Positions 55,443-56,361 of a stretch of DNA of 64,000 nt are shown piece by piece. The stretch is from IMG/VR virus record IMGVR_UViG_3300013094_000021. One strand, written 5' to 3'. Source of the stretch: a virus (taxonomy: Duplodnaviria > Heunggongvirae > Uroviricota > Caudoviricetes). The notes beneath the pieces are model-generated. The model was not told where the DNA came from. It worked only from the letters and a program-made list of their open reading frames with translations, and searched no databases. Position 1 is the stretch's first letter. Every line of letters starts with the position of its first letter. The translations under genes were made by a program, and so were the position numbers.

Positions 55443-55471
55443 TTGACATTTAAAAAAAATTCTTTATCCTA
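55443..55471 (+). promoter_or_regulatory. consensus promoter driving ORF-free structured region
   Basis: cttgacatttaaaaaaaattctttatccta. Confidence 0.5.
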
Positions 55472-55478
55472 TTAACAT

Positions 55479-55745
55479 ACTTAAAGGCGCAAGCTCACCG
55501 CCCAGCAGCGGTCAAGACGAGATAGCCTAAATTGAATCTAGCTGGTGCGTCCAGAAGTGCCGCTTTGGACGTAATGAAATAGGAGCAACCCCAAGGATGA
55601 ACTGAAAAATGAAACAATTTTAAATTCATCTGGAAAAAGCGCGGCGGATACGGTGTCCGAAAGTCAAAGTTGCGCCATCGTTAGGTGAGAGGCAATGAAT
55701 GAACAGCCGCAGTTTTATTAAATGTTTTTTTCTTTCTGGTTTAGG
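55479..55745 (+). ncRNA. candidate structured ncRNA 1 (ORF-free, GC-enriched, long-range helix ggcgcaa...ttgcgcc)
   Basis: no ORF >10 codons; helices ggcgcaa(55486)/ttgcgcc(55670), gcgtccaga/tttggacgt, ccgc/gcgg. Confidence 0.4.
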
Positions 55746-55826
55746 TTTTTATATGCCGAAAGGTAGGCTGGATTGCCGATTAATTTAGGCTGAAAACAAT
55801 TATCTAAATCAGAAAAAAGAAAATAG

Positions 55827-55854
55827 TTGACAAATTGAAAATTGTCTTTAGAAT
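55827..55854 (+). promoter_or_regulatory. consensus promoter inside the ORF-free region
   Basis: agttgacaaattgaaaattgtctttagaat. Confidence 0.5.
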
Positions 55855-55859
55855 GTAGG

Positions 55860-56310
55860 AGTTGTTAGTGATGATTGTTTAATAATTATTCTGTTATTTG
55901 AAAACTGATTTGATGACGCGAAATTGCGTGGCCCGCAAGCCATAATAATCGCTGAAAGTCTCACCCGCAAGGCTCGGCAAAGCATATAAGCCAAGACAAT
56001 AATCAAATTAGTTTTCAGGTAATTAAATCAATTACTTAAAATTCGGTTGCACAAAAGTCCGCGCTACTGACCGTGCAACGTCACAGAGCGCGGCAATTGT
56101 TAGGTTGGTGATTCACCATAATTCTTGGACATTTGTTCAAGATTCCTAACTGAAATTTAACGGTGTAGGTTGCCACCGGAGAAATCAAAGAGCTAACCTA
56201 TGGAAAGCTTGGCCTAGCGAGCATGACTCCTAAAGTAGAATCAATTAATCTAGGATGGATTTTTCTATATGAATAAACAATCACTCCGAAAAGGTTAGAA
56301 AGAAATTTCA
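55860..56310 (+). ncRNA. candidate structured ncRNA 2 with H-type pseudoknot and GNRA-type hairpins
   Basis: pseudoknot 56046..56093: gttgcac/gtgcaac interleaved with ccgcgct/agcgcgg; tggc-ccgcaa-gcca and cc-gcaa-gg hairpins; no ORF. Confidence 0.4.
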
Positions 56311-56361
56311 TTTAAAAAAAGAATTACTTGACAATTAATCCACTTTCTTTATCCTATTGGT

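Follow-up and report, generated by a model that had tools for sequence, protein, structure and literature searches.

A noncoding stretch at positions 55415-56361 of a 64,000-nucleotide (nt) window from an uncultured phage (Caudoviricetes; IMG/VR record IMGVR_UViG_3300013094_000021) is, with high confidence, a cassette of noncoding RNA (ncRNA). One of its elements, referred to here as module E (56161..56254), can be regarded with equally high confidence as a real, conserved and structured RNA, which is predicted from comparative sequence analysis to form two consecutive H-type pseudoknots. The family to which it belongs is new, is shared by phages that are otherwise unrelated and, as judged from the sequences collected, is found only in contigs of uncultured phages and metagenomes. 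The window, by which the whole analysed stretch is meant, is identical to a Logan contig from SRR6476446, and all the features of the cassette are given on its plus strand. The cassette sits in the early, accessory part of the phage genome and looks like two transcription units made of separate modules, which fold on their own and are richer in guanine and cytosine (GC) than the A/U-rich linkers between them.

Structure and conservation of module E

Related contigs (L003-L007 and L024-L031) were reached through homologues of two flanking proteins. When the region was compared with these relatives, only 56158-56264 was found to recur, with matches in L005 and L028/L029. A pattern drawn from this shared piece gave 15 real matches in the metagenomes of the Joint Genome Institute (JGI), and further patterns added members from IMG/VR. 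The family alignment comprises 15 distinct sequences of about 110 nt from contigs of 35-56% GC, with 37 invariant positions, many of which lie outside helices.

The structure was analysed first on 13 sequences and then on 15. The proposed fold consists, in order, of a helix P1 of 5 base pairs (bp), a pseudoknot PK1, a GGA/UCC clamp, a helix P3 (5 bp), a second pseudoknot PK2, and a bridging strand. In PK1 the entire 8-nt loop of P1 (UAGAUUGC) would pair with a downstream GCGUAUCUA, and in PK2 5-7 nt of the P3 loop would pair with the 3' tail, to which an invariant A-rich single strand, AAAGUAGAAUCAAUAAAC, leads. The helices follow one another with few or no intervening nucleotides, an arrangement that would allow end-to-end stacking into a single rod.

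Covariation in the alignment argues strongly for this fold. Twenty-seven pairs were tested; 96.2% of the cells are canonical across the 15 sequences, and 15 of the 27 pairs have changed on both sides. The covariation score is 0.484 as against 0.138 in shuffled alignments, none of 500 shuffles being as high, and when the partners are slid by 1-3 columns, canonical pairing falls to 30-45%. PK2 and P3 are the most variable helices, and PK1 draws its support from an A-U/G-C swap in five sequences and from compensatory changes in the divergent member L074. U-G pairs at two positions (in 14 and 11 sequences) establish the plus strand of the window as the transcribed one. An alternative pairing in module E, UCUAU with GUAGA, found no covariation support when the alignment columns were read. 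A search for covariation among relatives had been proposed in the initial annotation of this DNA; it strongly backs module E, an element that the initial annotation had not picked out. For the remaining parts of the region (unit 1 and modules A-D, described below) no homologues were found in the sequence data searched.

In the window copy, P1 is assigned to 56161-65 with 56174-78, PK1 to the P1 loop 56166-73 (UAGGUUGC) with 56192-56200 (GCUAACCUA), the clamp to GGA 56202-04 with UCC 56228-30, P3 to 56207-11 with 56218-22, and PK2 to the P3 loop 56213-17 (CCUAG) with 56250-54 (CUAGG), preceded by the conserved single strand UAAAGUAGAAUCAAUUAAU at 56231-49. P1, the clamp, P3 and PK2 (5 bp) are all able to pair. 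In PK1 the pairing, UAGGUUG with UAACCUA, is offset slightly in register, and the G-C pair of PK1 at alignment columns 12-58 covaries with A-U in other members. The conserved blocks of the family, GUAGRUUGCCAC, AAGAGC, GGAA and UCCNAAAGUAGAAUCAAU, are recognizable in this copy, which deviates from the family only by having GCUAACCUA for GCGUAUCUA in the 3' strand of PK1 and AAUUAAU for AAUAAAC. A covariance model of the family, R1, matches the window at 56158-56264 with 104.7 bits and an E value of 3e-20 over model positions 1-113 of 113. However, R1 was built from 13 sequences that included the window copy, and the independent support therefore comes from the blastn and nhmmer matches. Nested minimum-energy folding gives module E a z-score of +0.2; such z-scores are thus blind to it. 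A search of the window for an antisense target of the conserved single strand turned up nothing convincing. A tract of five U at 56260..56264 is the likely 3' end of the second transcription unit, as suggested by the U-tract pattern in the family.

Distribution and genomic context of the family

All 15 members come from phage or viral contigs or from metagenome contigs. Two exact-pattern scans of bacteria and archaea, with one genome each from 185,579 species, gave no real match, and a blastn search of 50,697 GenBank phage records with the region and with two family members gave none either, nor did any of these phages resemble the region. Canonical family members from other loci match nothing in Rfam, and a full-text literature search for the conserved sequence strings returned no relevant paper.

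The search with R1 found one copy per locus, and there is no protein family common to at least three lineages within 5 kb of the module. A consensus-like promoter lies 10-15 nt upstream of the module in the L034 and L040/L045 groups, as read by eye from the sequence. A run of at least four U follows the conserved block at a distance of 5-22 nt in 11 of the 15 members, compared with a background of 9%. Transfer RNAs (tRNAs) or tRNA-like RNAs occur near the module in six of the 15; in L044 the module begins 6 nt past a tRNA-like RNA, and in L041 and L050 a tRNA-Tyr lies about 150 nt downstream. In L028 and L005 the module follows other structured modules, and about 110 nt more remain before the next promoter. 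In L039, two tandem repeats of about 130 nt (18-400), each ending in a T-arm-like GGGCCGGAGUUCG, were observed directly upstream of the double-pseudoknot RNA.

Noncoding status, composition and promoters of the region

The region had been annotated as the longest stretch of the window free of open reading frames (ORFs) above about ten codons on both strands, and as strongly enriched in GC. The first statement stands for the plus strand, on which 55415-56361 (947 nt) is the longest stretch with no ORF of at least 45 or 60 amino acids (aa); on the minus strand there are ORFs of 44, 52, 35 and 37 aa. An independent gene caller placed nothing in the stretch on the identical Logan contig. The possibility of a disrupted protein gene was ruled out, since every one of the six frames contains 20-26 stop codons and tblastx of the region against 38 related loci revealed no protein-level similarity; the RNA module alone is picked up, in all frames. 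The enrichment in GC was not borne out. The region has a GC fraction of 0.376, compared with 0.364 for the window and 0.366 and 0.412 for the flanks, and an equal or higher fraction is reached by 37% of stretches of the same size. Rather, GC is distributed in patches, with islands of 0.47-0.60 and linkers of 0.17-0.30 between them.

The two consensus promoters noticed at the outset are present: TTGACA-16 nt-TATCCT at 55443..55470, with a predicted start near 55477, and TTGACA-16 nt-TAGAAT at 55827..55854, with a predicted start near 55861. Both match a phage-wide consensus, TTGACA-N16/17-tATnAT preceded by a conserved cTTTAT, of which there are about 90 occurrences on the plus strand of the window (for example at 50177, 52501, 53582, 54878, 56328, 57347 and 58303). 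In about half of these sister promoters an ATG follows exactly 7 nt past the -10 box, which implies that leaderless messenger RNAs (mRNAs) are widespread; at other sites, A-rich leaders without a Shine-Dalgarno sequence were observed. The promoters at 55443 and 55827 have ATA and GTT, not ATG, at the predicted start. A terminator scan of the plus strand of the region detected one weak hairpin (56106-18, inside module D) and no strong conventional terminator. A repeat search returned promoter repeats and hairpin arms only, by which a replication origin or iterons were ruled out.

Unit 1 and modules A to D

The first unit, a candidate ncRNA at 55477..55731, is proposed on the basis of its promoter and the absence of an ORF. 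Its closing helices, 55486-92 with 55670-76 (ggcgcaa with ttgcgcc) and CCGCC 55498-502 with GGCGG 55643-47, would enclose three hairpins (55548-73, 55597-55630 and 55646-58), and a possible pseudoknot joins CUCACC 55494-99 with GGUGAG 55684-89. The 3' end is placed at a run of seven U (55725-31). The first of these closing helices, the hairpin at 55548-73 and a further hairpin, tggc-ccgcaa-gcca at 55929-42, had been quoted in the initial annotation, and all were recovered. As a whole, unit 1 is thermodynamically not unusual (z +0.2 for 55477-55740 and -1.55 for 55484-55680), and within it the hairpin 55546-75 has a z-score of -4.25. No homologue of unit 1 was found in any of the sequence data searched; a motif scan with GTGTCCGAAAGTCAAAG gave four chance matches, at least three of them within integrase genes.

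Module A (55725..55822) is a long A/U-rich hairpin with a stem of about 22 bp and a GC-richer core, and it ends 5 nt before the next -35 box. Its span (55718-55830) has a z-score of -4.1, with one of 200 shuffles as good, and the long hairpin accounts for weak microRNA-like matches in Rfam. Within the second unit, module B (55893..56025) is an inverted repeat, I2, whose 22-bp stem (55893-55914 with 56002-56025) closes a multi-branch junction. The junction contains the hairpins ACGC-GAAAUU-GCGU (55916-29) and UGGC-CCGCAA-GCCA (55929-42), with loops of GAAA and GCAA type; the G-U pairs of the stem favour the plus strand, and none of 200 shuffles folds as well (z -4.8 for 55888-56030).

Module C (56046..56093) is the H-type pseudoknot of the initial annotation, with helices S1 (GUUGCAC 56046-52 with GUGCAAC 56073-79) and S2 (CCGCGCU 56059-65 with AGCGCGG 56087-93) and loops of 6, 7 and 7 nt. 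Within the 64 kb no other interleaved pair of 7+7 bp has at least four G-C pairs in each helix, and a pair of this kind arises in three of 3000 dinucleotide shuffles of the region; without the GC filter, interleaved 7+7 pairs are common (274 of 2000 shuffles). Comparative support for module C was not found; the sequence data searched contain no homologue. Module D (56099..56150) is a three-way junction, in which GUUAGG 56099-104 pairs with CCUAAC 56145-50 around hairpins at 56106-18 and 56123-42; its span (56098-56156) has a z-score of -3.4, and the minimum-energy fold makes up 54% of the ensemble.

The stretch 55861-56320 as a whole folds with a z-score of -3.6. The minimum-free-energy test suggested in the initial annotation comes out in favour of modules A, B and D and of the hairpin 55546-75, but not of the full length of unit 1. 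For modules A-D the sequence data searched yielded no homologue, and no relative conserves them.

Probable gain and loss of the cassette

A 40-nt direct repeat, D2, brackets the RNA-bearing part of the region. The left copy (55434..55473) lies in the promoter region of unit 1, and the right copy (56319-56358), which is 83% identical to it, is the promoter of a 151-aa gene. In the closest relative, L004 (87% nucleotide identity across the adjacent 104-aa gene), the 104-aa gene is joined straight to a promoter and a 146-aa homologue, so that the equivalent of 55245-56360 is absent. Other relatives carry different ORF-free, promoter-driven stretches beside the same genes. The cassette is probably gained and lost by recombination between promoter repeats.

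Similar behaviour is known from T4-type phages, in which Arbiol et al. reportedly described mobile regulatory promoter/stem-loop (PeSL) cassettes in 2010. The resemblance lies in the near-identical early promoters that flank cassettes variably present between close relatives, and in module A as a long stem-loop directly before a promoter. PeSL cassettes differ in having small ORFs as cargo, in place of the ncRNA seen here, and recombination at the present locus is putative.

The genome has a GC content of 36%, and its nearest helicase is only about 32% identical. A search of IMG/VR with the flanking proteins reached one distant locus only, which shares nothing in the region, and a 19-mer scan of IMG/VR gave 16 matches, every one by chance. 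The adjacent 151-aa protein, which is also recorded on a 115.7-kb JGI contig, has no Pfam or PHROG match, and its AlphaFold model (predicted local distance difference test score 77) has no Foldseek match in the PDB. L004 also lacks ORF61, for which a search of 5.8 billion proteins yielded no homologue. Among the relatives, L003 (2772-2860) and L005 (814-900) were observed to have in common a promoter-driven module of about 90 nt, AGUUAAGAGCAAGACAGGUCAGACGAU...GUUCUUAAC, downstream of the 150-aa homologue, as well as a second module, GUAAGUCAUGUG...CUCUGAACUUAUUAUUA; these are lineage-specific noncoding arrays unlike that of the window.

Comparison with known RNAs

At gathering score, Rfam 15 recognizes two tRNAs only in the whole window (47967 and 48118), and for 55300-56450 a search at E values up to 10 produced only sub-gathering matches to implausible families (microRNA and small nucleolar RNA), the best with an E value of 0.066. 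The families thereby covered, none of which was recognized in the region at gathering score, include GOLLD, ROOL, HEARO, group I/II introns, RNase P, 6S, ribozymes and riboswitches. The two tRNAs, tRNA-Met (47967-48042) and tRNA-Arg(UCU) (48118-48193), lie in 47908-48193, each with its own consensus promoter, and tRNA-Arg(UCU) begins only about 3 nt past the predicted start site. A tRNA with an intron or a transfer-messenger RNA (tmRNA) was considered for 55400-56400 and rejected, as ARAGORN and Rfam find none; ARAGORN calls at lowered thresholds are mutually inconsistent and were taken as noise.

The initial annotation likened the region to the giant phage RNAs GOLLD, ROOL and HEARO, which are likewise structured, phage-associated, without an assigned function and often near tRNA genes. 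These RNAs, however, are single folds of 400-800 nt, and the locus here looks like a chain of small independent modules. With no credible Rfam 15 match and only one module (about 100 nt) conserved elsewhere, the region cannot be placed among them. The expectation of a tRNA-rich accessory region holds in part: the region is followed, at a distance of 0.6 kb, by a tRNA-like RNA, and the six family members mentioned above have tRNAs or tRNA-like RNAs near them. The downstream RNA (56848-56978, about 130 nt; promoter 56814-56841) has an acceptor stem of 7-10 bp (GUUGAGUGCG with CGCACUUAAC), a D-arm resembling that of class II tRNAs (GCG-AAAUGCAAAGA-CGC), and a perfect T-arm (GCAGGUUCAAAUCCUGC), but its middle part is enlarged and departs from the standard form. 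It goes uncalled by ARAGORN and reaches 17.8 bits with the tRNA model of Rfam. Homologues of it were observed in unrelated double-pseudoknot loci (L045, L044/L055, L050 and L051), with three copies in L045, two of which end in CGCGCUCACCA, and possibly in L026, which is without the double-pseudoknot RNA.

Module E itself invites comparison with two pseudoknotted RNAs. The pistol ribozyme (RF02679), laid out as a hairpin whose entire loop pairs downstream, corresponds to the first half of module E; it also resembles the module in its further helices, invariant junction nucleotides, small size and intergenic occurrence in phages and metagenomes. Module E is, however, about twice as long and has a second pseudoknot and a conserved single strand of 19 nt, and RF02679 matches neither the window region nor the other family members at E values up to 10. 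Like tmRNA, module E has consecutive non-nested H-type pseudoknots in what would be a stable bacterial or phage RNA with tRNA-like elements near, but it lacks both the tRNA-like domain and the tag reading frame of tmRNA and is not similar to it in sequence.

A functional link with the repair proteins RtcB (26071-27258) and Rsr, the TROVE/Ro60 protein (27379-28686), both encoded in the window, had also been suggested; it was not found, the two genes being about 27 kb upstream of the region. The likeness to the YrlA/Rsr system consists of a phage that encodes Rsr and RtcB together with promoter-driven small structured RNAs and tRNA mimics. Published YrlA Y RNAs, however, lie within 4 kb of rsr and have a tRNA-like domain (PMC4201824). 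The region here starts 26.8 kb downstream of Rsr on the same strand, and 55443-56340 contains no T-loop of the GGTTCRANYCC type. The YrlA motif GNCGAAN0-1G has one match, at 55755 inside module A and outside a terminal stem; since it occurs 40 times in the window, it is not diagnostic. No Rsr or RtcB homologue was found near the other module loci, which is a weak test, as flanks of at most 10 kb were examined. By both distance and tRNA-like domain the region thus differs from YrlA, and an RNA at 27303-27372 fits far better.

At 27269-27372, in the 120-nt gap between rtcB and rsr, a consensus promoter would drive this RNA of about 70 nt, which starts with GUCGUGGCGAAGUUUAG. Its ends pair (GUCG with CGAC), and its GGCGAAG fits GNCGAAN0-1G. 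It is likely to be the phage Y RNA or a leader of rsr.

Possible functions of the cassette

The best explanation, which remains a best guess held with slightly better than even confidence, is that the region is an ncRNA cassette in which module E is an autonomous, trans-acting small RNA. According to this proposal, module E would be a self-contained small-RNA gene, acting as RNA in trans, whose compact, nuclease-resistant fold may expose invariant unpaired nucleotides and so bind, decoy or sponge up a factor that many hosts or phages have in common. In the window it would have become fused behind the lineage-specific modules B, C and D, within one transcript of about 400 nt from near 55861, and unit 1 (55477-55731) would be a second, lineage-specific RNA. 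The small-RNA-gene reading of module E is preferred because it accounts for the promoter, the compact body, the U-tail, the invariant unpaired nucleotides and the lack of partner genes.

Several observations weigh against this proposal. Where the RNAs start and end, and how many of them there are, is deduced from the sequence, and the trans-acting role is guessed from the genomic context. In L032, L033 and L066 genes of what seems to be a single operon lie on both sides of the module, no U-tract follows it in L032 and L033, and L032 and L066 have a start codon within 12-20 nt after the module, a combination that a cis-acting or self-processing element would fit better. The members were gathered with the family's own patterns and amount to only 15 distinct sequences, so that the invariant blocks are partly a product of the way they were collected. 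Unit 1 and modules A-D are without homologues in the sequence data searched, and unit 1 is no more stably folded than shuffled sequence; spacer or regulatory DNA may therefore make up parts of the region.

Among other roles for module E, the order of preference places a ribozyme after the trans-acting small RNA, then a transcript-end element, and last an unlikely partner of Rsr. RNA families with comparable invariance in a double pseudoknot have usually proved to be ribozymes, riboswitches or cores of RNA-protein complexes. It is possible, if somewhat doubtful, that module E represents a new functional class of small RNA, either a new self-cleaving ribozyme or a stand-alone aptamer for a ligand or protein that phages deploy in trans, for instance to sponge up or decoy an immune signal or a factor of the host; such a class would explain conservation of riboswitch or ribozyme grade without a constant neighbouring gene. 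The ribozyme by itself, which would cut at or near its own 5' edge, free the upstream RNA (tRNA-like, hairpin module or mRNA) and define the transcript end, is rather doubtful. In its favour, the unpaired nucleotides of the compact double pseudoknot are conserved to a very high degree, as in small ribozyme classes, and the 5' boundary is sharp next to a highly variable upstream context. The pistol-like layout of the first half, the tRNA-like RNA 6 nt upstream in L044 and the tRNA-Tyr about 150 nt downstream in L041 and L050 point the same way. The phage moreover encodes RtcB, which ligates termini of the type produced by such ribozymes. Yet the module lacks even a weak match to any Rfam ribozyme model, its helix order is unlike that of hepatitis delta virus (HDV)-like or twister ribozymes, the sequence reveals no cleavage site, and RtcB was not seen near other family members within flanks of at most 10 kb. 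Less probable again is a purely cis-acting element that terminates transcription and/or blocks 3'-to-5' exonucleases, thereby stabilizing the upstream RNA, and has no function in trans. The U-tract in 11 of the 15 members, the position of module E as the last structured element of the unit (behind structured modules also in L028 and L005), and the plus-strand scan, with no strong conventional terminator in the region, are consistent with it. However, a mere roadblock would not need some 37 invariant nucleotides across phages of 36-56% GC, the spacing between PK2 and the U-tract ranges over 0 to 9 nt, unlike in intrinsic terminators, and L032 and L033 have no such tract.

A role for the RNAs of the region as partners of the phage Rsr (Ro60) in the manner of Y RNAs, working with an Rsr/RtcB repair module, appears very improbable. 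The phage does encode RtcB and a TROVE/Ro60 protein, tRNA-like RNAs are nearby, the ends of unit 1 form a terminal stem, and GUCCGA at 55654-59 resembles the metazoan Ro-binding GGUCCGA (PMC4201824). Against this stand the distance of about 27 kb from rsr, compared with at most 4 kb for published YrlA (PMC4201824), the lack of a T-loop or tRNA-like domain in 55443-56340, and the lack of Rsr near other family members (flanks of at most 10 kb); the promoter-driven 70-nt RNA with GGCGAAG between rtcB and rsr is the natural candidate instead. The question of whether the region outside module E is functional at all is closer. Decayed or spacer sequence between mobile promoter cassettes, with hairpins that are mere terminators or insulators, is a tentative possibility to which more weight may be given than to any of the other alternatives. 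It would agree with the shuffle-level folding of unit 1, with the failure to find homologues of unit 1 and modules A-D, with the absence of the whole promoter-flanked segment from the closest relative, L004, and with the position of module A just before a promoter, which is the layout of T4-type promoter/stem-loop cassettes. It agrees less well with z-scores of -3.4 or below for each of modules A, B and D and the hairpin 55546-75, with the rarity of the GC-rich pseudoknot (3 of 3000 shuffles), and with two strong promoters that point into 250-400 nt of ORF-free sequence, which is unusual in a densely packed genome.

Other promoter-driven RNAs and elements in the window

An ORF-free RNA at 60184-60330 (promoter 60150) starts with GUCGCGAGUAUUGGACGUU and has a clean intrinsic terminator, AAUCCGCCAG...CUGGCGGAUUUUUU, at its end. 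The 5' part of this RNA has a homologue in L024 from position 11113 onward, the transcript of the L024 promoter at 11079, and Rfam shows no match to the RNA at gathering score. Consensus promoters without a start codon at the usual distance also occur at 42407-42670, 59346-59430, 60949, 61247 and 61672, and some of them may drive ncRNAs or long leaders. An ORF-free stretch with many TTGGCA/TGCCAA motifs and AT-rich runs is conserved between the window (61700-62100) and the relatives L029 (4340-4730), L024 (12710-13010) and L025 (8586-8705); this looks like a DNA-level element, such as protein-binding repeats or possibly an origin, and not an RNA.

Implications

The z-scores of minimum-energy folding miss the best-supported element of the region, and it is comparative data that find module E. 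A family that spans phages of 36-56% GC and has no fixed protein partner offers a well-defined target for biochemistry. Should module E indeed belong to a new functional class, the window would show an RNA of that class at work as the 3' domain within a larger early phage RNA of several modules. Overall, this group of phages carries many promoter-driven ncRNAs, among them mimics of tRNA, a likely Y RNA beside rsr and further small RNAs that are conserved, which points to an RNA-based toolkit in phage accessory regions that is larger than gene annotation shows.

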